A DNA stretch of 64,000 bases. Source: Candidatus Uhrbacteria bacterium. Its GTDB lineage: Bacteria > Patescibacteriota > Patescibacteriia > JACRJV01. The notes below the pieces were generated by a model that did not search any database, was not told the origin of the DNA, and saw only the letters and a list, made by a program, of their open reading frames with translations. The stretch is taken from NCBI GenBank assembly GCA_016215325.1, contig JACRJV010000026.1:95955-159954 (forward strand), in the 5' to 3' direction. Positions 4,786 to 55,401 of the stretch are shown in pieces (position 1 is the stretch's first letter; each line of letters begins with the position of its first letter). Position numbers and translations under genes: made by a program.

Positions 4786-6774
<1,989 letters not shown>

Positions 6775-7275
6775 CTATTCTTGCTTATCCCTATCTTGTT
6801 CGGATTGATAAATAACGACTCTCGCTGGCCGCAGCACCCGCCCTTGTATCCGATACCCCTTGGCCACGACGCGCGCGATCTTCTGGTCCTGTTCCCTCTG
6901 CCCGGGCTCGTGCTCCACTGCTTCGTGCAATGACGGATCAAATACCTCACCAATCTGCCCATACGACTCCACCGCGTGGCGTTTGAGCAAATCTTCCAGC
7001 TCCCGACGGATGTGCGTAATTCCTTGGAGCCACCCCCCAGTCTCCGGTGGTACATGGGCGATCGCCTGATCAAAGTGGTCGACCACGGGCAATAAATCGT
7101 GCACCATCATGCTCACGGACCATGCGGCCAATTCTTTCTGCGCGGTTTCCGTTTCTCGTTTGAGATTCTGATAATCGGCCAGCGCCCGCTTCCAACCGGC
7201 TTCAAATTCTTTCATTTTGCGTTCGCATTCAGCATGGCTTGTATCATTAGCTTGTAGTGTATTCTCATCACTCAT
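6775..7275 (-). CDS. grpE: Nucleotide exchange factor GrpE
   Basis: It lies between hrcA and dnaK; coiled-coil N-terminus followed by a GrpE-like C-terminus (…HAVESYGQIGEVFDPSLHEAV…). Confidence 0.8.
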   Translation of the reverse strand: MSDENTLQANDTSHAECERKMKEFEAGWKRALADYQNLKRETETAQKELAAWSVSMMVHDLLPVVDHFDQAIAHVPPETGGWLQGITHIRRELEDLLKRHAVESYGQIGEVFDPSLHEAVEHEPGQREQDQKIARVVAKGYRIQGRVLRPARVVIYQSEQDRDKQE

Positions 7276-7976
7276 ATCATTTCTTGCGCTATCAATTCTT
7301 GCATGCGTTCAAACAGATTAATGTATTTCCCATACGCCATCCGCATCGGGCCCAATACCCCCACCATCGTCGGTGGATCGGTTGGCAGCGTCGTGCTAAT
7401 GGTACTCAAACGACTGCACAAGGGGTTTTCCCGGCCAATCATCACAGAAACTGTCCCGGATTCCCTGGCGTCCATCATCAGCGGCCACAATTCTTCCAAC
7501 CGATCAATGGCCTGGCTCCATGCATACACCAGTTCTGGATCGGCAAACTCCGGCTGGACAAACAACCGAGATGCACCCGTCCAATACACATGGTGCGGCT
7601 CTTGCGCAACAATCACCGCTTCATGAATATGTGCAGACATCGCATGGGCCAGCGTGCGTAACTGCTCAAATGGATCCGGGCGTTGGAACGCCTCTAATAC
7701 TTGCTGCTCCCATCCTGATCGCGTGGCCTTTTGGTGCTCGGTGGGCGAAGATTCACGCACATACCATTGGTAGGCTTGTTCGGTGGGAATTCGGCCAGCC
7801 GAGGTGTGCGGTTGCTCTAAAAATCCTTCTTGCTCCAGGTCGCGCATCTCATTGCGGATCGTGGCAGAACTCACTGGAAAATGATACTCTCGAACAACCA
7901 GCTGCGAACCAATCGGTTCTGCGCGGTCGATATACGCTTCGATAATAGTCTTCAAGAGATCAAATTTTCTGTCCAT
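7272..7976 (-). CDS. hrcA: Heat-inducible transcription repressor HrcA (short form)
   Basis: N-terminal wHTH (EPIGSQLVVREYHFPVSSATIRNEMRDLEQEGFL); gene is first in hrcA-grpE-dnaK-dnaJ and a CIRCE operator lies upstream. Confidence 0.8.
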   Translation of the reverse strand: MDRKFDLLKTIIEAYIDRAEPIGSQLVVREYHFPVSSATIRNEMRDLEQEGFLEQPHTSAGRIPTEQAYQWYVRESSPTEHQKATRSGWEQQVLEAFQRPDPFEQLRTLAHAMSAHIHEAVIVAQEPHHVYWTGASRLFVQPEFADPELVYAWSQAIDRLEELWPLMMDARESGTVSVMIGRENPLCSRLSTISTTLPTDPPTMVGVLGPMRMAYGKYINLFERMQELIAQEMI

Positions 7977-10223: not shown

Positions 10224-10427
10224 ATGCAACAAGGAACAATCGCCCGTCTCACAGACCGTGGCTTTGGATTTATCGCCCGCGAAGGTGAGGAAAAAGAACT
10301 CTTTTTCCACGCTAGCGCCCTGGTCGGTGTCCAATTCACCGATCTCAAAGAGGGGGACAAAGTGACCTTCGAAGTCGGACAAGGCCCAAAAGGCCCGAAC
10401 GCCACGAATGTCCAACGCGTGAGCTAA
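10224..10427 (+). CDS. cspA: Cold-shock protein (CspA family)
   Basis: MQQGTIARLTDRGFGFIAREGEEKELFFHASAL… carries the RNP1/RNP2 motifs; 67 aa. Confidence 0.9.
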   Translation: MQQGTIARLTDRGFGFIAREGEEKELFFHASALVGVQFTDLKEGDKVTFEVGQGPKGPNATNVQRVS

Positions 10428-10439
10428 CTCCTTCCGCAA

Positions 10440-10470
10440 AAAACACTCCGGTTCACCGGAGTGTTTTTAT
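10440..10470 (+). terminator. Rho-independent terminator of cspA
   Basis: Stem aacactccgg / ccggagtgtt with a ttca loop, followed by TTTTAT. Confidence 0.8.
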
Positions 10471-10526
10471 GTACCAAAATTCTTCGGAATGGGAGAGTGC
10501 TGGGGGTCATAACCCGTTTTTATGTT

Positions 10527-11003
10527 TTACAAATCACTCACGTTGTCTGGCAGATGATCGATTCCGCCAAATTCTTTAACAATGATGGATTTGATTTTTT
10601 GTTTCATTTCCGGTTTTACGAAAGTAATGGTCATTCCTTTTTCGCCGCCGATACTTTCGCAATCGTCTTCGATTAAAATTTCGGGTATGACACGCTCTGC
10701 TACATCTTTGTATTCTTCGGCATCTTTTCTAAATTCCAAAGTACCTGTGGGGAAATTTTGTAGGACACCACGAATATCATTGATCTCTTTATCAGTTCGG
10801 CGAGAAGTTAAATAAACGATTTCCTCACCTTGCTCTTTCCATTTTTTGATTTTCTCAATAGCATCTCCAATCGGTACATATTCAGCGTAACTTTTTACGG
10901 AGGACTCTTGCTCTATAACTTGCTTAACAATTGTAGAGCGGTCATGTCCGACTCCATTTTTTGGCATTAAGATTGTACCTTCGGTAAAGATGAGGATTTT
11001 CAT
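10527..11003 (-). CDS. Hypothetical protein in an AT-rich insertion
   Basis: 158-aa ORF with clean coding appearance. Its 4-nt overlap with the downstream gene suggests an operon. No motif recognised. Confidence 0.4.
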   Translation of the reverse strand: MKILIFTEGTILMPKNGVGHDRSTIVKQVIEQESSVKSYAEYVPIGDAIEKIKKWKEQGEEIVYLTSRRTDKEINDIRGVLQNFPTGTLEFRKDAEEYKDVAERVIPEILIEDDCESIGGEKGMTITFVKPEMKQKIKSIIVKEFGGIDHLPDNVSDL

Positions 11004-14324: not shown

Positions 14325-14365
14325 TAAGAGATAAAGAGATAAGGAGATGAAGAGATAAAGAATAC
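14325..14365 (-). promoter_or_regulatory. CU-rich tandem octamers (CTTTATCT CTTCATCT CCTTATCT CTTTATCT, mRNA sense) ending 6 nt before the AsnRS-like start codon
   Basis: Read from the sequence; a related copy lies ahead of pyrE at 15217-15245. Confidence 0.4.
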
Positions 14366-23980: not shown

Positions 23981-24931
23981 TTATACGTGTTCGGCGGCCC
24001 GCAATCGTGCACTGCGCGAGGTGGGGTACTGGCGGAGTTCTTCGGTCGAAGGAGTAATAGATCTTGCCGTTAACAATTTGACGGTCGCCGAGGTACCGCA
24101 AATGCAAATCGGCGCCTCGGGCGGGCAAACGCAGGACTTCGCTAACATCCGCAGCGTCTGTTTTACAATCCGATCTTCGAGCGAATGATACGAAATAATC
24201 ACAATCCGGCCGTTTGGGTTCAGGACATCCACCCACACCTTGATGGCACGCTGGATAATGGCCAGCTCATCATTGACCGCAATCCGAAGGGCTTGGAGCA
24301 CCAGTGTCATCGGATTGTGGCGGCGATGCGCTCGCACAAGAGGGACAACAAGGAACTCTAACTCGCCAACAGTGGTCAGCGGCGATACGCCGCGATACTG
24401 GACGATAGTGCGTGCAAGCTGTTTTGCAGATGGCACTTCTCCATATTCGCGCAACCAGCGTTCGATCTCTTGCGCACTCTTGTCGCGTAAGAGGTCTGCA
24501 GCGGTCGGGATGGCGGCGCTCGGATCAAATCGCAGATCCAACGGGGCGGAGGCGTAGCGGAAACTCATCCCGCGTCTGGGATCTTCGAGGTGCTGGATCG
24601 CCACTCCCAGATCGAGCAGCACTCCATCGACGTGGGTTTTACCGGCAGCCCCGAGAATCTCTGCCACGTGGTCATAAGAGTTATGGACAAGCATGACACA
24701 ACTCTTCCAGGCAGCAAGGGTTTCCGCGGCAGCCAGCAGCTGCTGCGGATCTCGATCGACGCCGATGAGCATCCCATCATGACCAGCGCAAATGACTTCT
24801 GCAATGCGTTTGGCATGCCCTCCGGATCCGACAGTACCATCGACCACTGTCTGACCGGGAGCGCACGCTAAGTATTGAATAGCTTCATTCGCGAGGACGG
24901 GATGATGGCTCAAAAAAATTCCAATTTCCAA
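23981..24931 (-). CDS. rsmH: 16S rRNA (cytosine1402-N4)-methyltransferase RsmH / MraW
   Basis: VDGTVGSGGHA…, DLGVA-type SAM-binding motifs; gene adjacent to mraZ. Confidence 0.85.
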   Translation of the reverse strand: MEIGIFLSHHPVLANEAIQYLACAPGQTVVDGTVGSGGHAKRIAEVICAGHDGMLIGVDRDPQQLLAAAETLAAWKSCVMLVHNSYDHVAEILGAAGKTHVDGVLLDLGVAIQHLEDPRRGMSFRYASAPLDLRFDPSAAIPTAADLLRDKSAQEIERWLREYGEVPSAKQLARTIVQYRGVSPLTTVGELEFLVVPLVRAHRRHNPMTLVLQALRIAVNDELAIIQRAIKVWVDVLNPNGRIVIISYHSLEDRIVKQTLRMLAKSCVCPPEAPICICGTSATVKLLTARSITPSTEELRQYPTSRSARLRAAEHV

Positions 24932-25004
24932 TTTCCAATTTCCAATGAGCGATCGGCATCGATATTGAAAATTGAAAATTGAAAATTCATTGTAAATTGA
25001 AAAT
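24918..25004. repeat. mraZ-rsmH intergenic palindrome: (TTCCAAT)x4 on the left arm, (GAAAATT)n on the right
   Basis: attccaatttccaatttccaatttccaat … gaaaattgaaaattgaaaattcattgtaaattgaaaattt. Confidence 0.7.
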
Positions 25005-25469
25005 TTATACTCCCAGTTCTCTCATCTGCTCGGCAATATCCACACTATTGGTTTCTGCCTGGAGCTTGTACTGCTCCCACGCCTCCTCATCCCATAATTC
25101 GATCCGAGAATACAAACCGGCGACAACCACCTGCTTATTCAACTTTGCGTATTGGCGGAGGTATTCGGGCAATACGATCCGACCATTACCATCGAGCTCC
25201 GCGTCCATAGCGCCGCCGAACATGAGCCGAGCGAATGCCCGCGGATTGGATTGGGATATCGGCAGCGCGGAGAGCTTTTCTGCCAACTGCTTCCAGGAGT
25301 CTGCGGGGAACAAAAAAAGACACTGGTCAATTCCGCGAGTAACAACAGCGCCTTTCTTGAATTGTGCTTGATATTTTTTGGGGATGGCAAGCCGCCCCTT
25401 ATCGTCCAATGTGTGGTGGTATTCTCCGATGAAGATTGCCATACGTGAATGAACAGGACTTATCCCCAC
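25005..25469 (-). CDS. mraZ: Transcriptional regulator MraZ
   Basis: MFLGEYHHTLDDKGRLAIP motif duplicated (…GAMDAELDGNGRIVLP…). Confidence 0.9.
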   Translation of the reverse strand: MGISPVHSRMAIFIGEYHHTLDDKGRLAIPKKYQAQFKKGAVVTRGIDQCLFLFPADSWKQLAEKLSALPISQSNPRAFARLMFGGAMDAELDGNGRIVLPEYLRQYAKLNKQVVVAGLYSRIELWDEEAWEQYKLQAETNSVDIAEQMRELGV

Positions 25470-28915: not shown

Positions 28916-28992
28916 GAGTGAATCCCGCTTAGCCAGTGAATCCCGCCGGCCAGCTACTGGCTCACCGGATTTACTGGATTTACTGGATTTAC
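28916..28992. repeat. rplJ-rplL intergenic palindrome: (AGTGAATCCCGC)x2 on the left arm, (GGATTTACT)x3 on the right
   Basis: gagtgaatcccgcttagccagtgaatcccgcc … ggatttactggatttactggatttact. Confidence 0.65.
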
Positions 28993-29514
28993 TTATTTCT
29001 TAGAATTTCCAATCGCGTCAATAACACTGACGAGTTGTCGAATATTGGCATTGAGCGCTCCCACCACGCCGGAAATCGGCGCATTGAGTAACCCAACCAA
29101 TTGGCCGCGCAGTTGTTGTTTTGTCGGCAGCGTACTCACCGCTGTGACCTCTTCCGCAGTAATCCATCGCCCCTCGAAGATTCCCCCGAGCGGGTTGATC
29201 ACCTCATTTTTCTTGCGGAAGGTCATCAAGACCTTTGCGGGTGCGACTTCGTCGCCATATCCCAGCAACAGACTGATGCTCCCGGCTAAGCTGCGGGCCG
29301 ACACGGTCCAACCCGTGTCCTTCACCGCCACGTCAAGCAAAGTTTTCTTGACCGAGACATATTCAGCCTGTTCTGCTTCCAGTTGTTTGCGCAGCTCCTG
29401 GCTCTGAGCAACGCTCATCGCGTTGTAGCTTGCAACCACAACAGACTTGGCACGGCCCAAATGATCCTTGAGCCCGGCAACGATTTCTTCTTTTCGACTT
29501 CGTGTTTTTGCCAT
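28993..29514 (-). CDS. rplJ: 50S ribosomal protein L10
   Basis: [19 protein letters not shown]…[21 protein letters not shown]. Confidence 0.85.
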
Positions 29515-32160: not shown

Positions 32161-32201
32161 AATTTGGACATCAAAAATTTTATTGGGAATTGGGAATTAG
32201 A
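32143..32201. repeat. Weak member of the heptamer-palindrome family (…ctaattatcaaaat … attgggaattgggaattag)
   Basis: Read from the sequence. Confidence 0.4.
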
Positions 32202-32937
32202 TATTATGTTTCCGTATAATAATATTTTTTGCTGCTTGATACCTCTCTATCGTCTTCTTCCACCATGGCAAATATTTAAAGGGGGCGTGATACGCGAATG
32301 AGGGAACCCACTGGCTCATGGTCCCGCCGGTGGCTATGGTGTAGAGTACTTCCGGGATGAATACCCCCCTGCCGCCGCGCTCGGCAATTGTTAAAAAGAG
32401 GTCCCAGTCCTGGAATTTCTTGAGGCTCTCGTCAAACCGCGGGAAGGCACCGCGGCGCAGTAAAGAGCTAGTATGAATGTAGTTCAATTGGCGCAATGTT
32501 GCAAGATCAAAGGGGAATGAACTAAACTTCTTATGACTAAAAAGGAATTGGCTGTAGCTGAATGCCGCGTCCGGGTGTTGCTCGAGCGCTTCCCACATTT
32601 TTTCAAGACAATCCGGCTCCAGACGAATATCGGCATCACAAAAAAAGAGAAGGTCACCATTGCAAGCATCAAACCCGCGATTGCGCGCAGCGGCTGCTCC
32701 CCTATTTTGTTGATCAATCCATTGTATGGAGAATCCCTTACGTTGTAGTAAATCTGCAATCTGCAATCTGCAATCTGCAATCGTATCCGTCGATCCATCA
32801 TTGACAATAATAATCTCAGTTTCTATTCTAATGTTTTTAAGAACATTAGAATAGATAGATTGTTCAAGAATACTCTCGACACAGGCTTCGAGTTCTTTGG
32901 CGTGATTATATACCGGGATGATGATCGAAACTAGCAT
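32197..32937 (-). CDS. Family 2 glycosyltransferase
   Basis: MLVSIIIPVYN…; IIVNDGSTD; …FCDAD. Confidence 0.8.
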   Translation of the reverse strand: MLVSIIIPVYNHAKELEACVESILEQSIYSNVLKNIRIETEIIIVNDGSTDTIADCRLQIADLLQRKGFSIQWIDQQNRGAAAARNRGFDACNGDLLFFCDADIRLEPDCLEKMWEALEQHPDAAFSYSQFLFSHKKFSSFPFDLATLRQLNYIHTSSLLRRGAFPRFDESLKKFQDWDLFLTIAERGGRGVFIPEVLYTIATGGTMSQWVPSFAYHAPFKYLPWWKKTIERYQAAKNIIIRKHNI

Positions 32938-38667: not shown

Positions 38668-39792
38668 TTATAATGCACCTCCGGTGCGTTCCAGGATACG
38701 AGACAACTTCTGTACCCGTTGAGTCCACTGAAACTCTCTTAACACCCGCTCTCTTCCTGTAGCTCCCATAGTATTCATCCTGTCCGAGTCATTCAACAAA
38801 TCAATAATGTCCTGGACGATTTTTTTGATATCTGTCGGGCTCGTGAGCACCCCAGTGCCGCCATCTTCCACCGCCTCCGGCACGCCTCCACTGCGTGCTG
38901 CCACCACCGGCAAACCATACAGTGCCGCTTCCAGGCACACCATGCCAAACCCTTCCACATCGCCGTTGGGCAGTTCTCGCGGCAAAAAGACAAAGCAGTC
39001 GGCAGCGCGATAGAATTGAGCAAGCCGCTCTACAGAGGCCGAAGGTTCAAATCGAATGACATCGTGGACATCGAGTTGATCGGCCAATACTTCAATGCGC
39101 CGGCGATCCGGTCCGTCGCCGACAAACGTCCAGTGGAATTTCTTTCCCTGTTTTTTGAGTTCGGCGGCAACAGACACGGCGGCATCGTATCCTTTGCGTT
39201 CAACAAACCGGGCGATGGTAAGGAGGCGCCAGGTCGTCGCGTCATCCTGAGGGAAGGCCGAAGGATCTCGAGATTCTACGCTCGACCCAGAATGACGAAC
39301 AGCGGCAATGACGGTTGCCGACGGACACGGAGTGAGCACTGTTATTTTTTCTTTATCAATTCCGTACTCCAAAACAATCTTTTTTGTATATTCCGAATTC
39401 GTGATGACCCAGGTTGCACGCTGCATCACCTTTTTTGCAATCCATCGCTTGCGGCCGTTCAGTGCGAGATCAAGACCATGCGCAAAAATTCCGTAACGAA
39501 ATCCAGGTATTAAATCATTAAACCAATAAACTAATAAATCAATAAACCAAACCGCTTCTCCAACAGGCAATACCTCGCCCGCAAATATGATGCTTGCCTT
39601 GTGTCTTTTCATCTCCCTGAGAATCCGCCACAGCATCGGGAGCCACCGCGGAAAAAATCCCCAGTATAATTTTTCTTCGCCCACGAACGGAATAATCTTT
39701 CCTTCACTCGCATCCACAAGTCCGCGATAATATTCCCCCACTCCGCCCACCATGGGCGGGTATTCCAACGCGGCTAACAGTATTCTGTTCAT
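38668..39792 (-). CDS. Family 4 (GT-B) glycosyltransferase
   Basis: …FVFLPRELPNGDVEGFGMVCLEAALYGLPVVAARSGGVPEAVEDGGTGVL (EX7E-type motif). Confidence 0.8.
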   Translation of the reverse strand: MNRILLAALEYPPMVGGVGEYYRGLVDASEGKIIPFVGEEKLYWGFFPRWLPMLWRILREMKRHKASIIFAGEVLPVGEAVWFIDLLVYWFNDLIPGFRYGIFAHGLDLALNGRKRWIAKKVMQRATWVITNSEYTKKIVLEYGIDKEKITVLTPCPSATVIAAVRHSGSSVESRDPSAFPQDDATTWRLLTIARFVERKGYDAAVSVAAELKKQGKKFHWTFVGDGPDRRRIEVLADQLDVHDVIRFEPSASVERLAQFYRAADCFVFLPRELPNGDVEGFGMVCLEAALYGLPVVAARSGGVPEAVEDGGTGVLTSPTDIKKIVQDIIDLLNDSDRMNTMGATGRERVLREFQWTQRVQKLSRILERTGGAL

Positions 39793-46688: not shown

Positions 46689-46697
46689 ACTGTCGAT

Positions 46698-46789
46698 AAT
46701 TTTCAATTTTCAGTTTACAATTTTCAATTCAGTCGCATGTTTGAAAATTGTGTCTTGAAAATTCATTGGAAATTGATAATTGAAAATTT
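46698..46789. repeat. rpsK-rpsD intergenic palindrome of (AATTTTC)n and (GAAAATT)n arms
   Basis: aattttcaattttcagtttacaattttcaatt … ttgaaaattgtgtcttgaaaattcattggaaattgataattgaaaattt. Confidence 0.7.
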
Positions 46790-46797
46790 ACTATATA

Positions 46798-47703: not shown

Positions 47704-47708
47704 AGTGT

Positions 47709-47789
47709 AATTTCAGATTTTAGATTGTAGATTGATGATTCTAGAGCGTATGCGATTATTCTGCAATCTGAAATCTAAAATCTGCAATG
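47709..47789. repeat. rpsM-rpmJ intergenic palindrome of (CAGATTT/TAGATTG)n arms
   Basis: aatttcagattttagattgtagattgatgattctag … attctgcaatctgaaatctaaaatctgcaatg. Confidence 0.7.
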
Positions 47790-47792
47790 TGT

Positions 47793-50494: not shown

Positions 50495-51685
50495 TTAACG
50501 TTCCACCATTTCAATAATCCCCCCTCCCAGCAGTTCAAGCCCTTCCGCAGTGTCCTGGTAGAATACCACGCTTTGGCCGGACGTCAAAGCCCGCTCCGGC
50601 TGATCGAACGTGCAGATGATCGTCTGCGCACTGGCCCCTGGAACTCCCGCCTCAGCGGGGCCCCGCCCTGGCGGTGACTGGCCCCTGGAACCTGAAACCA
50701 CGGCTGTCGCGCCCGGGTGCCGATACCGCGGCTTAGCAATCACCCGAATCGGCTCTGGTGGAGGTTGACCGCTCAACCAGTTCACTTTTGATAAAATAAC
50801 AGTCCGCGCAAAAAGCGTCTTATCTTCTGCACCGATCGAAACCACCAGAGTATTTGTTACATAATCTTTTTGTGCCACATAATACGGCCCGCCGCCGCCC
50901 AGCCCCAACCCCTCGCGCTGGCCAATCGTATAAAATGCGAGCCCGCGATGCCGGCCGATTTCCTCGCCCGTTGTGGTCACAACCACTCCTTCAGATTGCT
51001 GCCGGATTCGCGATTGTAAAAACTCTTGGACATTGTTTTTAATAAAACACACCTCTTGGCTTTCCTTTTTGAGCGCCACGGGCAACTCCATCTCTTGCGC
51101 CAATGTCCGCACCTGCGGCTTGGCGAACTCGCCAATCGGGAATAGGAGGCGCTTGAGCTTTTCTTGCGTCAAGGTATACAAAAAATACGACTGATCTTTG
51201 TGGGGGTCTTGGGCGACAAACAATCGTTGCCGAAATTGGGAATTGGGAATTGGGAATTGAAAATTTCGTACATAGTGCCCGGTGGCAAAATAAATACTCT
51301 CTTTCTCTGCTTCTGCCGCTTCAGAAAGGATCCTGTCAATCAGCTCAAACTTAATCGTTCGATTGCACTCCACGCAAGGGTTCGGGGTGAGCCCAGACTC
51401 ATATCCAACCAAAAATGGTTTCACCACGTTCTGACGAAATTGTTCTCGTAGATCCATCACCGTCAACGGGATGCCAAGGTGGTCGCACACGCGTTGGGCA
51501 TCATTCATGGCATCCAAATTGCAGCAATTGGTAAAATCCTTTCCACCCGGCACAAGGCCATCCACATCCCCCCAGTAGCGCATAAAAACTCCGCGTACCT
51601 CAAAACCGCGCTGCCCAAGCAGCGCGGCGGCGACCGAGGAATCAACTCCGCCGGACATCGCGACGTAGACTATTGTTCTATCCAC
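50495..51685 (-). CDS. mnmA: tRNA-specific 2-thiouridylase MnmA (carries an in-frame copy of the heptamer repeat)
   Basis: PP-loop VAMSGGVDSSVAA; …KDQSYFLYTL…; C-terminal GQSVVFYQD…GGGII. Confidence 0.85.
   Translation of the reverse strand: MDRTIVYVAMSGGVDSSVAAALLGQRGFEVRGVFMRYWGDVDGLVPGGKDFTNCCNLDAMNDAQRVCDHLGIPLTVMDLREQFRQNVVKPFLVGYESGLTPNPCVECNRTIKFELIDRILSEAAEAEKESIYFATGHYVRNFQFPIPNSQFRQRLFVAQDPHKDQSYFLYTLTQEKLKRLLFPIGEFAKPQVRTLAQEMELPVALKKESQEVCFIKNNVQEFLQSRIRQQSEGVVVTTTGEEIGRHRGLAFYTIGQREGLGLGGGGPYYVAQKDYVTNTLVVSIGAEDKTLFARTVILSKVNWLSGQPPPEPIRVIAKPRYRHPGATAVVSGSRGQSPPGRGPAEAGVPGASAQTIICTFDQPERALTSGQSVVFYQDTAEGLELLGGGIIEMVER
51231..51268. repeat. Intragenic copy of the (AATTGGG)n heptamer element, in-frame in mnmA (encodes NFQFPIPNSQFR)
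   Basis: cgaaattgggaattgggaattgggaattgaaaatttcg with palindromic ends cgaaatt/aatttcg. Confidence 0.65.
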
Positions 51686-53895: not shown

Positions 53896-53904
53896 AAAAT
53901 CGTA

Positions 53905-53975
53905 TGAATTCCCAATTCCTAATCTCTAATACCCAATGAAATGGCGGGTATTGGAAATTGGAAATTGGAAATTGG
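53905..53975. repeat. Palindrome of (CCCAATT/CTAAT)n and (ATTGGAA)x3 arms between the ATPase gene and its membrane partner
   Basis: gaattcccaattcctaatctctaatacccaatg … cgggtattggaaattggaaattggaaattt. Confidence 0.7.
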
Positions 53976-53979
53976 AAAT

Positions 53980-55401
53980 TTACGCTACCGGAAGGTCTCC
54001 CGGCACTCCATCTTGCTCGTGCGCTGGCTCTTGTGCCGGTGTACGGAAGGGGGCGTGTTTCACGCCGGTAGACTCGCGCGAAATCCGCGAACCGGCATAC
54101 CGCTCCGAGACCGGCAACGCAAATGGCGGCTCGGCCTGCTTGGTGAGGGCCTTACTAATCAGCGGCGCCTTTACCGTTGCCACTGGGAAGTGGTAGAGCG
54201 TTGCGAGCTCTTCGATGTTGAGCACTTTACCCTCACCTTCTCCAGCCTCATCCTCGCGCAAATGAAACGCATGCATAAGCTTTCGTTGTTTGCTCGCAAT
54301 CCGTTCCTTCACAAAATAATATTTTGCGGCCGTCGTCACCTTCCCGCTCGGGCTCAACCCATTCATGTGTTGGGTGCTAAACTGGCGCATGGCACCCAAA
54401 ATCGGTACCACCCCCCGCGCTTTGTTAAAGACTTCTTTTTTGGCGATATACACAAATCGCATTTTGGTAAAATACCCGATCTTCGCCATTTTGAGCTGCA
54501 CCCCCTCTAACACCGCGCGTTCGCCCGGCGTTAAATATTGCACTTTATTGGGAGCCTCGTCTCCCCCGCCATGCTCACCACCGCCTTCACCCGGTGGGAA
54601 TATAAACGAAAGCAAAAATTCAAAGAGCTTAACTGGGTACCCCAATAACGTTGTGATAAAGGGTGGCGCGTGCTCACGATGCGCCCCAATCATCTCGTCG
54701 ACGATGTGCTGGGCGTGCTCTTTCCACCCATCCCCGGTCGGCTGCACGACATACTGGAGCCAAATATGCTCATCAGGTCCCAGTTTGCTCATACTCTCGA
54801 GCATTCCCGCTAAGGGGTCTTTGAGCTCTTGGCTCATGGTGTGTTCAAATTCGGGATAGGTGCGCAACGGGTAAGCTTCGTGCTTCGTAAGAATAAATTC
54901 CGTGCCCCACATGTCCCACTCCGGGTTGGGGAATTTATGCGGGAAGTGATGCGTGTAGTCTTCCACTTCGATAATCTCGGCATCCGGATACTGCGAAAAA
55001 AATGCGGCTTCGATAAGATCACGGAATGCCGTGTTGGTCCATACAAAAAATCGAATATATCCGCCGCTGGAAACAATCTCAAAGCTAAACCGCTCTTGCG
55101 TTTTGCCCAGCCACCATTTTTCGTAGAAATCTGCTCCCGAAAGCGCGCCATGCACTTGAGCAAAAATTTGTTCGACAGCTTTGGGGCTTTGTTCATTCAG
55201 TTTCGGGATATTAATCGCCAATAGCAGGAATGAACGCTGATGTTCAAAGTGATGTCGGACGCGCTTGAGCCACACGAGCTGTGAAATTTTGATACCCCCC
55301 CAGACAACAATAATCCACCCGCCGTGGGTAATGATGTACCACAAGAGGGAAAAAAATGAGAGATTCGCGAAATTCGCAAAGAAATCAAGGTTCAATACCA
55401 T
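53980..55401 (-). CDS. Hypothetical membrane protein co-oriented with, and 5' of, the VirD4-like ATPase
   Basis: N-terminal TM pair (FFSLLWYIITHGGWIIVVWGGI…); large soluble domain with a Gly-rich acidic loop GEGGGEHGGGDE. Confidence 0.45.
   Translation of the reverse strand: MVLNLDFFANFANLSFFSLLWYIITHGGWIIVVWGGIKISQLVWLKRVRHHFEHQRSFLLLAINIPKLNEQSPKAVEQIFAQVHGALSGADFYEKWWLGKTQERFSFEIVSSGGYIRFFVWTNTAFRDLIEAAFFSQYPDAEIIEVEDYTHHFPHKFPNPEWDMWGTEFILTKHEAYPLRTYPEFEHTMSQELKDPLAGMLESMSKLGPDEHIWLQYVVQPTGDGWKEHAQHIVDEMIGAHREHAPPFITTLLGYPVKLFEFLLSFIFPPGEGGGEHGGGDEAPNKVQYLTPGERAVLEGVQLKMAKIGYFTKMRFVYIAKKEVFNKARGVVPILGAMRQFSTQHMNGLSPSGKVTTAAKYYFVKERIASKQRKLMHAFHLREDEAGEGEGKVLNIEELATLYHFPVATVKAPLISKALTKQAEPPFALPVSERYAGSRISRESTGVKHAPFRTPAQEPAHEQDGVPGDLPVA

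Follow-up and report, generated by a model that had tools for sequence, protein, structure and literature searches.

A translated period-7 AATT-core array in mnmA of a Candidatus Uhrbacteria genome and its counterparts in other bacteria of the candidate phyla radiation

The mnmA gene and its in-frame heptamer array

We analyzed a 64,000-nt stretch (the window) of contig JACRJV010000026.1 from a Candidatus Uhrbacteria genome (JACRJV01 lineage), in which a short tandem heptamer array lies in frame within mnmA, an essential tRNA-thiolation (tRNA-modification) gene. The gene, the array, and the protein segment that it encodes are as follows.

50495..51685, minus strand: mnmA (tRNA 2-thiouridine(34) synthase), 396 amino acids (aa), intact, with the SGGVDSS PP-loop, the PNPCVECN and EVCFI cysteines, and KDQSYFLY all present
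51231..51268, minus strand: flagged element, coding strand CGAAATTTTC(AATTCCC)x3AATTTCG, codons R140-R152, peptide RNFQFPIPNSQFR
51234..51259, minus strand: period-7 core of the array, 3.7 units with 100% matches according to Tandem Repeats Finder (TRF), AATTGGG on the plus strand and AATTCCC on the coding strand
51215..51274, minus strand: predicted beta-hairpin, codons 138-157, with strands at 138-144 and 152-157; the array encodes its distal part and tip

The product of open reading frame (ORF) 50495..51685 is MnmA, having the PP-loop ATPase, central, and C-terminal barrel domains, the catalytic cysteines, the fold, and the synteny of this enzyme. Pfam assigned the ORF to MnmA (PF03054 with 2e-69, PF20259, and PF20258), the protein is identical to an NCBI entry named tRNA 2-thiouridine(34) synthase MnmA [Candidatus Uhrbacteria bacterium], HMMER matched it to Escherichia coli MnmA (2der) with 4.5e-73, and Foldseek superposed its model on the solved MnmA structures 2hma, 2det, 2deu, and 2der with template modeling (TM) scores of 0.82-0.90. 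At residues 104-107 and 213, the window protein has a CxxC...C pattern (PNPCVECN and EVCFI) where E. coli shows DxxC. By motif reading, this pattern appears to match the Fe-S-cluster-dependent "ancient" MnmA type (PMC7025502).

The plus strand at 51231-51268 reads CGAAATTGGGAATTGGGAATTGGGAATTGAAAATTTCG, i.e., CGAAATT(GGGAATT)x3GAAAATTTCG, and the ORF is uninterrupted across it, with the translation ...GHYVRNFQFPIPNSQFRQRLFVAQDPHKDQSYF.... By codon, the coding strand of the element is CGA AAT TTT CAA TTC CCA ATT CCC AAT TCC CAA TTT CG, encoding R140-N-F-Q-F-P-I-P-N-S-Q-F-R152. The sequence, TRF, and the ORF thus agree with the initial annotation, made from the letters alone, which had described a repeat translated in frame at these positions. 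It had also placed the repeat in the stretch that separates GHYVRR from KDQTYFLY in E. coli MnmA. The HMMER alignment to 2der puts the element there, the actual motif being KDQSYFLY, a trivial difference, and shows the window protein to be 5 aa longer at this place. Relative to the minimal MnmA loop of the candidate phyla radiation (CPR), the window loop is longer by 9 aa.

An AlphaFold model of the window MnmA had a mean predicted local distance difference test (pLDDT) score of 82, and in this model the array-encoded residues form the distal half of a beta-hairpin in the catalytic domain, together with its turn. The residues at the hairpin tip, 144-149, had pLDDT values below 50. The model therefore agrees with the earlier expectation of a surface-exposed insert, and it is plausible that the array is tolerated as a solvent-exposed surface loop. 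The remaining low-confidence segments, 41-48 and 335-352, are lineage-specific inserts too.

Arrays at the same loop in orthologues and their turnover

An alignment was made of the 12 MnmA proteins closest to that of the window (55-71% identity) together with more distant CPR proteins, and the DNA was compared for 11 of them; loci and proteins from other genomes are given below by L and P numbers, respectively. Orthology is supported by the shared order of TraD-like, mnmA, alaS, infA, and rpsM genes in L001-L003 and L005-L006; L004 has the upstream TraD-like gene in common with the window, and its contig stops before alaS. At the same codons as the window array, the loop of these genes contained the following.

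L001 (MnmA 71% identical): (AATTCCC)x4, equal loop length
L002: (AATTACC)x4.9
L006: (AAATTCC)x4.4
L007 (Portnoybacteria): (AAATTCG)x4.6
L011 (Howlettbacteria): (AATTTCC)x4.6
L089 and L091: (AATTCCA)-type arrays
L092: (AATTAAA)x4.6
L003: a decayed period-7 trace
L004 and L005: GC-rich hairpin elements (z -3.1 and -3.8)

The array site is filled in all of the closest relatives of the window. Exact heptad-periodic stretches of at least 10 aa were present in the loop of 32 of the 117 CPR MnmA sequences, and many further CPR loops, including that of the window itself, are imperfectly periodic. The density of heptad-periodic stretches in CPR MnmA was 10.7 per 1000 aa in the loop versus 0.42 elsewhere, and 10 of the 17 stretches outside the loop fell within the last 80 residues, a second, C-terminal hot spot. 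As a control, about 47 phylogenetically broad non-CPR bacteria showed no loop array of more than two units, and their loops were mostly 27-31 aa long (extremes, 24 and 35). Within CPR, the loop array was absent in all four Saccharibacteria loci (4/4) and in one Uhrbacteria locus. The site is likely an old nest for heptamer arrays, common to the mnmA genes of many Parcubacteria-type CPR bacteria, and not a fresh insertion. The earlier proposal that a mobile element had been inserted in this particular genome does not hold, because arrays occupy the same codons in L001, L002, L003, and many CPR lineages. The orthologue alignment that the initial annotation had called for showed that L001, L002, and L003 share a 33-aa loop (GHY-to-SYF distance) with the window, and the case named there as contrary, the same peptide encoded without a DNA repeat, was not encountered, since the peptide NSQFPIPNSQ of P0003 comes with a DNA repeat in L001.

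These lengths bear on an explanation at the protein level, in which a longer hairpin is needed for contact with a partner or tRNA and selection for length recruits the readiest insertion, a heptamer expansion. The 33-aa loop is held in four Uhrbacteria despite unit change and decay, and most CPR loops exceed those of other bacteria, as would be expected. However, CPR loop lengths span 15 to 60 aa, a sizeable CPR clade functions with the minimal 15-aa loop, the tip is predicted to be disordered, and the conservation of synonymous positions described below is left unexplained. We give this explanation very little credence.

Within each orthologous array, synonymous positions are identical while the units differ from genome to genome, and the periodicity therefore belongs to the DNA. 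Since 7 is not divisible by 3, a heptamer array yields one and the same cyclic heptapeptide in whichever frame it is read, which is why FPIPNSQ, IPNSKFQ, LPITNYQ, and similar peptides recur; for the same reason, any stop-free unit can be read through, provided that the total length is a multiple of three. Fourfold-degenerate sites are saturated between the window and L001, with 57/132 (43%) identical, whereas the array region is identical at 33/39 positions, including a 25-nt perfect run, with unit and phase in common. The array is thus conserved beyond the neutral expectation for a drifting orthologous segment, and the AATT core is retained even between MnmA proteins that are only 45% identical. 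In concerted-evolution theory, homogenization alone leaves divergence between lineages unslowed. As array conservation exceeds neutral drift and homogenization alone is insufficient, some DNA-level constraint, templating, or regeneration must act. Templated conversion of the mnmA unit by intergenic units was considered but found no support: units are mixed within loci and gave no clear match in L002, L006, or L091.

Several comparisons of close relatives recorded abrupt changes at the site. L089 and L090, whose MnmA proteins are 82% identical, differ by a clean 33-nt indel that corresponds to the array and has no element-like ends. The mnmA genes of L091 (1599-2747) and L092 (295-1437) are identical at nt 1-398 and 757-1149, and their flanks are identical at 294/294 nt upstream and 2987/3000 nt downstream, but the two differ in a 358-nt block of 73% identity with the array at its exact left edge, (AAATTCC)4.4 in L091 and (AATTAAA)4.6 in L092. 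The pattern suggests that the block may be a recombination tract bounded on one side by the array. Each of the two alleles turned up again in independent assemblies (P0014, P0108, and P0297 versus P0021 and P0298-P0300), which speaks against a chimera that arose once. Apart from the loop and the C-terminal hot spot, P0018 and P0023 share about 99% identity. Turnover at the site is thus fast relative to gene divergence, yet unlike high-frequency phase variation.

The last point concerns the idea of a contingency locus, in which a gain or loss of one unit would shift the frame of mnmA and thereby switch the 2-thiouridine modification of tRNA position 34 (s2U34) reversibly on and off. A unit length that is no multiple of 3 and a mid-gene position, in a gene whose loss alters decoding, are what such a locus would have. 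Its arrays are nevertheless short, with 3-5 units, the loop is in frame in all of the 117 orthologues where it could be delimited, and no length variation was seen in seven clusters of at least 90% identity or in one metagenome test, a small sample. Scarcely any weight can be placed on this idea.

The AATT-core family, hairpin modules, and small GC-rich elements

The mnmA array fits a genome-wide period-7 family of simple sequence repeats (SSRs) with an AATT core, being a head-to-tail array of at least three units, with a dispersed excess and the AATT core. The 14-mer GGGAATTGGGAATT occurred four times in the window with at most one mismatch, versus 0.02 occurrences expected from shuffles, and GGGAATT, the unit of the mnmA array, is also found intergenically at 32182 and 53907. 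A census of perfect arrays of at least approximately 2.4 units, covering 265 kb of CPR sequence and 541 kb of non-CPR loci, gave 11 period-7 arrays per 100 kb in the CPR loci, where periods of 5, 6, 8, and 9 reached only 0.4-3.0 per 100 kb, and 1.7 period-7 arrays per 100 kb in the non-CPR loci. AATT was part of the unit in 19 of the 29 period-7 arrays versus 5.9% of random genomic heptamers. This family, together with the low-confidence hairpin tip in the model, supports the earlier view that repeat DNA of an intergenic type is tolerated in frame within an essential enzyme.

The intergenic arrays lie in short spacers separating co-directional genes and are mostly paired inverted arrays. Four intergenic modules folded on the transcript strand gave long hairpins, with z-scores of -2.4 to -5.8 relative to shuffles.

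24919..25005, minus strand: intergenic two-armed hairpin module, (TTCCAAT)x4, a 17-nt spacer, and (ATTGAAA)n; z -4.0 (24915-25010 folded)
46698..46788, minus strand: intergenic hairpin module with AATTTTC/GAAAATT arms, between ribosomal-protein genes; z -2.4 (46695-46792 folded)
47710..47788, minus strand: intergenic two-armed hairpin module upstream of an rpsM-like gene; z -5.75 (47705-47792 folded)
53896..53980, minus strand: two-armed hairpin module in the DUF8128-like/TraD-like spacer, with arms AATTCCC/AATTCCT... and (ATTGGAA)x4; z -5.8 (53896-53984 folded)

A module is also present in the DUF8128-like/TraD-like spacer of L001 (7797-7886), L002 (1-94), L003 (2337-2443), and L005 (7817-7964), with differing units; in L001, a CTAG core (TTCTAGG/CCTAGAA) replaces AATT. 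Intergenic modules therefore keep their position while their sequence turns over, as seen for this spacer in five Uhrbacteria.

The mnmA array lacks both traits of these modules, namely the hairpin formed by an inverted pair and the location in a spacer, as it occupies codons 140-152 of 396. It has one arm only, and its predicted RNA fold of -4.3 kcal/mol (z -0.15) was equaled or bettered by 77 of 200 shuffles; the DNA z-score was -0.54. Orthologous mnmA arrays were unstructured too (z +0.65, +0.97, +0.84, and -1.2). The array is hence not the "textbook member" of the intergenic family that the initial annotation had made of it, because it is single-armed and unstructured while the intergenic copies are inverted pairs with the z-scores given above. 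The palindromic CGAAATT/AATTTCG ends mentioned there are literally present, but they form no significant fold, are absent in L001, L002, L006, and L007, and were found on none of the intergenic copies examined. Compared with L001, the window array has the first unit AATTTTC instead of AATTCCC and further differences at the 3' junction, and it is these differences that create the apparent palindrome.

Selection on the DNA itself was also weighed: the array would be a functional nucleic-acid element, for instance a row of sites for a protein that recognizes AATT at 7-bp intervals or a signal for recombination or replication, and the peptide would be a by-product. DNA conservation above the neutral expectation, an AATT core kept across lineages with 45% protein identity, a site common across CPR, positionally conserved intergenic modules in orthologous spacers, and a mosaic boundary exactly at the array are all compatible with it. 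On the other hand, the unit shows free variation at its three variable positions, the arrays occur in both orientations to judge by peptides of the ENWKL type (P0046 and P0105), many orthologues have no array, among them an entire clade, the array has no RNA structure, and no candidate binding protein was identified. On balance, this explanation seems rather improbable. A G-quadruplex on the antisense strand, suggested by the Xanthomonas repeat GGGAATC, was likewise considered. It fails as a general explanation, for such a structure takes at least four consecutive G-tracts, and the plus strand of the window array offers three GGG runs with none nearby; most orthologous units are without GGG.

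Small GC-rich elements were also noticed, beginning with another insert in the window mnmA.

50630..50691, minus strand: second in-frame insert in mnmA, C-terminal domain (codons ~335-352), a 15-nt direct repeat with a 32-nt GC-rich core

The direct repeat ACTGGCCCCTGGAAC is located at 50630-50644 and 50677-50691, 47 nt apart, with each copy translated in a different frame. The 32-nt core has a counterpart of 33 nt and about 90% identity that breaks up an intergenic heptamer array of L005 (~7860-7893), and the insert looks like a tiny mobile GC-rich element with target duplication. In the mnmA loops of L004 (~10415-10545) and L005 (~10460-10570), GC-rich palindromic elements of ~70-100 nt lie in frame, e.g., GTCATTGCGAGC...GCTCGCGATGAC; by analogy, they resemble the in-frame Rickettsia palindromic elements (RPEs). 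The sequences GTCATTGCGAGC, from the L005 loop element, and CCCGCTGAGGCGGG, from the GC-rich core, were each present in a single copy across all loci searched. In both L091 and L092, the part of mnmA that codes for the C-terminal domain includes a GC-rich palindrome, CCCCCTCCCTCTGGGAGGGGGAGG, which is in frame.

Within the clusters of at least 90% identical proteins around P0049 (P0258-P0271) and P0043 (P0305-P0308), small peptides of the GC-rich type are present or absent in combinations at several MnmA loops. The variable peptides include PEGKPSASYGAG in the heptad-coded segment and SPAEVSTKAGK/LPTETGAKAGK near the C-terminus, and the variable inserts include an N-terminal one duplicating KVVVAMS and one of 7 aa ahead of FVATGHY. 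These combinations suggest that tiny elements are frequently gained, lost, or recombined in populations.

The remaining alternative is that a discrete mobile element with palindromic ends, comparable to a miniature inverted-repeat transposable element (MITE) or an RPE, recently transposed into mnmA and was in frame by chance. The mnmA unit does occur intergenically, the L089/L090 indel is a clean presence/absence difference, genuine small palindromic elements exist in the L004 and L005 loops, and mnmA contains, at another place, a GC-rich element flanked by a 15-nt duplication. Yet arrays with matching phase and loop length are found in genomes with 66-77% protein identity, and the terminal complementarity is neither significant nor conserved, being found in the window copy only. 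No target-site duplication flanks the array and no conserved terminal inverted repeat was found; the window contains no second whole 38-nt copy, with similarity at the level of the array only, 38 nt is not a multiple of 3, and the intergenic members differ in their two-armed architecture. This alternative is largely refuted by the orthologues L001, L002, and L003, and we consider it very unlikely.

The GT2 glycosyltransferase gene (glycosyltransferase family 2; 32197..32937, minus strand) contains the sole other in-ORF array in the window.

32751..32782, minus strand: second in-frame heptamer array, (GATTGCA)x4.6, encoding IADCRLQIAD right after DGSTD
32182..32198, minus strand: short (AATTCCC)x2.4 array adjoining the GT2 stop codon, unit equal to that of the mnmA array

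Uhrbacteria GT2 orthologues, compared at the peptide level, have IKNLELRIK, IRDIELRIT, or ISNFQFPIS at the position of the in-frame array, and these peptides would indicate that array nests are not peculiar to mnmA. The C-terminus of the orthologue P0142, ...KHNIQFPIPNSQ (...IQFPIPNSQ), appears to read into an AATTCCC-type array.

Short tandem arrays with a period of 8-9 nt were also observed in the window at 6745-6773 (ACTGGATTT), 28955-28993 (GGATTTACT), 14326-14361 (AAGAGATA), and 39511-39550 (TAAACCAA), and the region 6691-6778 is an inverted pair. A search with the peptide (IPNSKFQ)x6 matched only 17 tiny ORFs (P0121-P0137) of 40-74 aa without Pfam domains, probably intergenic heptamer arrays that metagenome annotation has mistaken for genes.

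Interpretation and comparison with known repeat families

We consider it likely that the mnmA site is a long-lived nest of heptamer microsatellites at a permissive hairpin tip, with frame-indifferent read-through, turnover by slippage and recombination, and occasional replacement by GC-rich elements. The window element would have begun as about (AATTCCC)x4, a microsatellite of the AATT-core period-7 family, readable in any frame as a stop-free unit of suitable total length. Slippage, unequal exchange, and homologous recombination may then have added, removed, or replaced arrays at the site or given them new units, and small GC-rich palindromic elements may sometimes have replaced or interrupted them, with a protein that would be indifferent to the loop sequence. 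The force that keeps the DNA a period-7 AATT array presumably shapes the intergenic hairpin modules too.

Several points weigh against this reading. Slippage and recombination are processes that we infer, gains and losses were judged on a crude neighbor-joining tree, and the surface exposure of the loop rests on an AlphaFold model. No copy-number polymorphism was seen: in each of seven clusters of proteins with at least 90% identity, the loop does not vary, and a metagenome scan for the exact sequences on either side of the L001 array, with the gap between them left variable, gave one match of the same length, with thin sampling. Both boundaries of the L091/L092 mosaic lie in conserved motifs, which leaves some small probability for an assembly chimera. 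Neutral concerted evolution alone also leaves the persistence of the AATT core and of the whole unit across saturated divergence unexplained.

A bolder proposal, which we regard as unlikely, is that an active, sequence-directed process in CPR bacteria generates AATT-core arrays at fixed nests in spacers and housekeeping genes, keeps them there, and exchanges them. Candidates would be a system linked to a nuclease, a recombinase, or a reverse transcriptase, or a protein binding to AATT at 7-bp intervals. The nests would then be points at which recombination tracts join and tiny GC-rich mobile elements land, leading to localized, cassette-like hypervariation in genes that are nearly identical otherwise, e.g., mnmA. 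If true, an active mechanism behind the family would be a new kind of system that shapes genomes, in a radiation of which little is understood.

The preferred reading, a long-lived nest, has consequences of its own. One loop of a universally conserved enzyme carries period-7 AATT arrays across much of CPR and none in the other phyla sampled, and it offers a tractable case in which DNA-level conservation beyond neutrality is combined with sudden replacement of alleles among near-identical strains. A heptad-periodic peptide in a CPR protein is a sign of a translated SSR and should be masked before alignment, phylogenetic analysis, or structure prediction; intergenic arrays give rise to miscalled tiny ORFs; and nests may mark recombination breakpoints in population genomics.

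A literature search found no paper on heptamer repeats or in-frame repeat insertions in CPR/Patescibacteria. Elsewhere, the short tandemly repeated repetitive (STRR) heptamers of cyanobacteria form another dispersed heptamer family. Heptameric SSRs are over-represented in some bacteria, their origin and function being unresolved (PMC4692102), and dispersed examples are GGGAATC in Xanthomonas and GGGGA(C/T)T in Nostoc (Rehm et al. 2015, PMC4692102), while Geobacter metallireducens has four-unit heptanucleotide elements within as well as between genes (PMC2700814). The CPR family shares with these SSRs dispersed 7-nt units that lie mostly between co-directional ORFs near gene ends, about four units as the commonest number, and occasional intragenic copies, and the window unit GGGAATT is one base apart from the GGGAATC of Xanthomonas. 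Unlike the Xanthomonas and Nostoc SSRs, however, the CPR family is set by an AATT core and three variable positions rather than by G-tracts. A G-quadruplex is not the common denominator, because the window array has three GGG runs only and most CPR units have none. The intergenic CPR members also differ from the Xanthomonas, Nostoc, and Geobacter SSRs in being inverted pairs that form hairpins, and an orthologous in-frame site across many lineages in a housekeeping gene is absent from the reports on those SSRs.

In having an SSR within an ORF and a unit that is no multiple of 3, mnmA is like the phase-variable contingency loci of host-adapted bacteria; unlike them, its array is short, shows no length polymorphism in what was sampled, and resides in a gene for a housekeeping tRNA-modification enzyme. 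Small dispersed repeats (SDRs) embedded in the tandem heptamer repeats of Nostoc punctiforme were reportedly described by Elhai et al. in Genome Research in 2008. Here, too, heptamer arrays are associated with very small (20-35 nt), structured GC-rich elements, although the phylum and the sequences are different; the likeness concerns three cases only, comprising the ~33-nt element in the L005 intergenic array and GC-rich inserts in heptad-coded segments.

In-frame repeat insertions are best known from Rickettsia. RPEs are inserted in frame in protein-coding genes at fold-compatible positions (PMC10969869). The mnmA array resembles them in that repetitive DNA is translated within a conserved enzyme of a reduced genome, but RPEs are palindromes of roughly 100-150 bp with family consensus peptides, whereas the mnmA element is a single-armed microsatellite of 26-38 nt with no significant hairpin. 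Closer analogues of RPEs are the GC-rich hairpin elements in the L004 and L005 loops and the C-terminal insert of the window mnmA.

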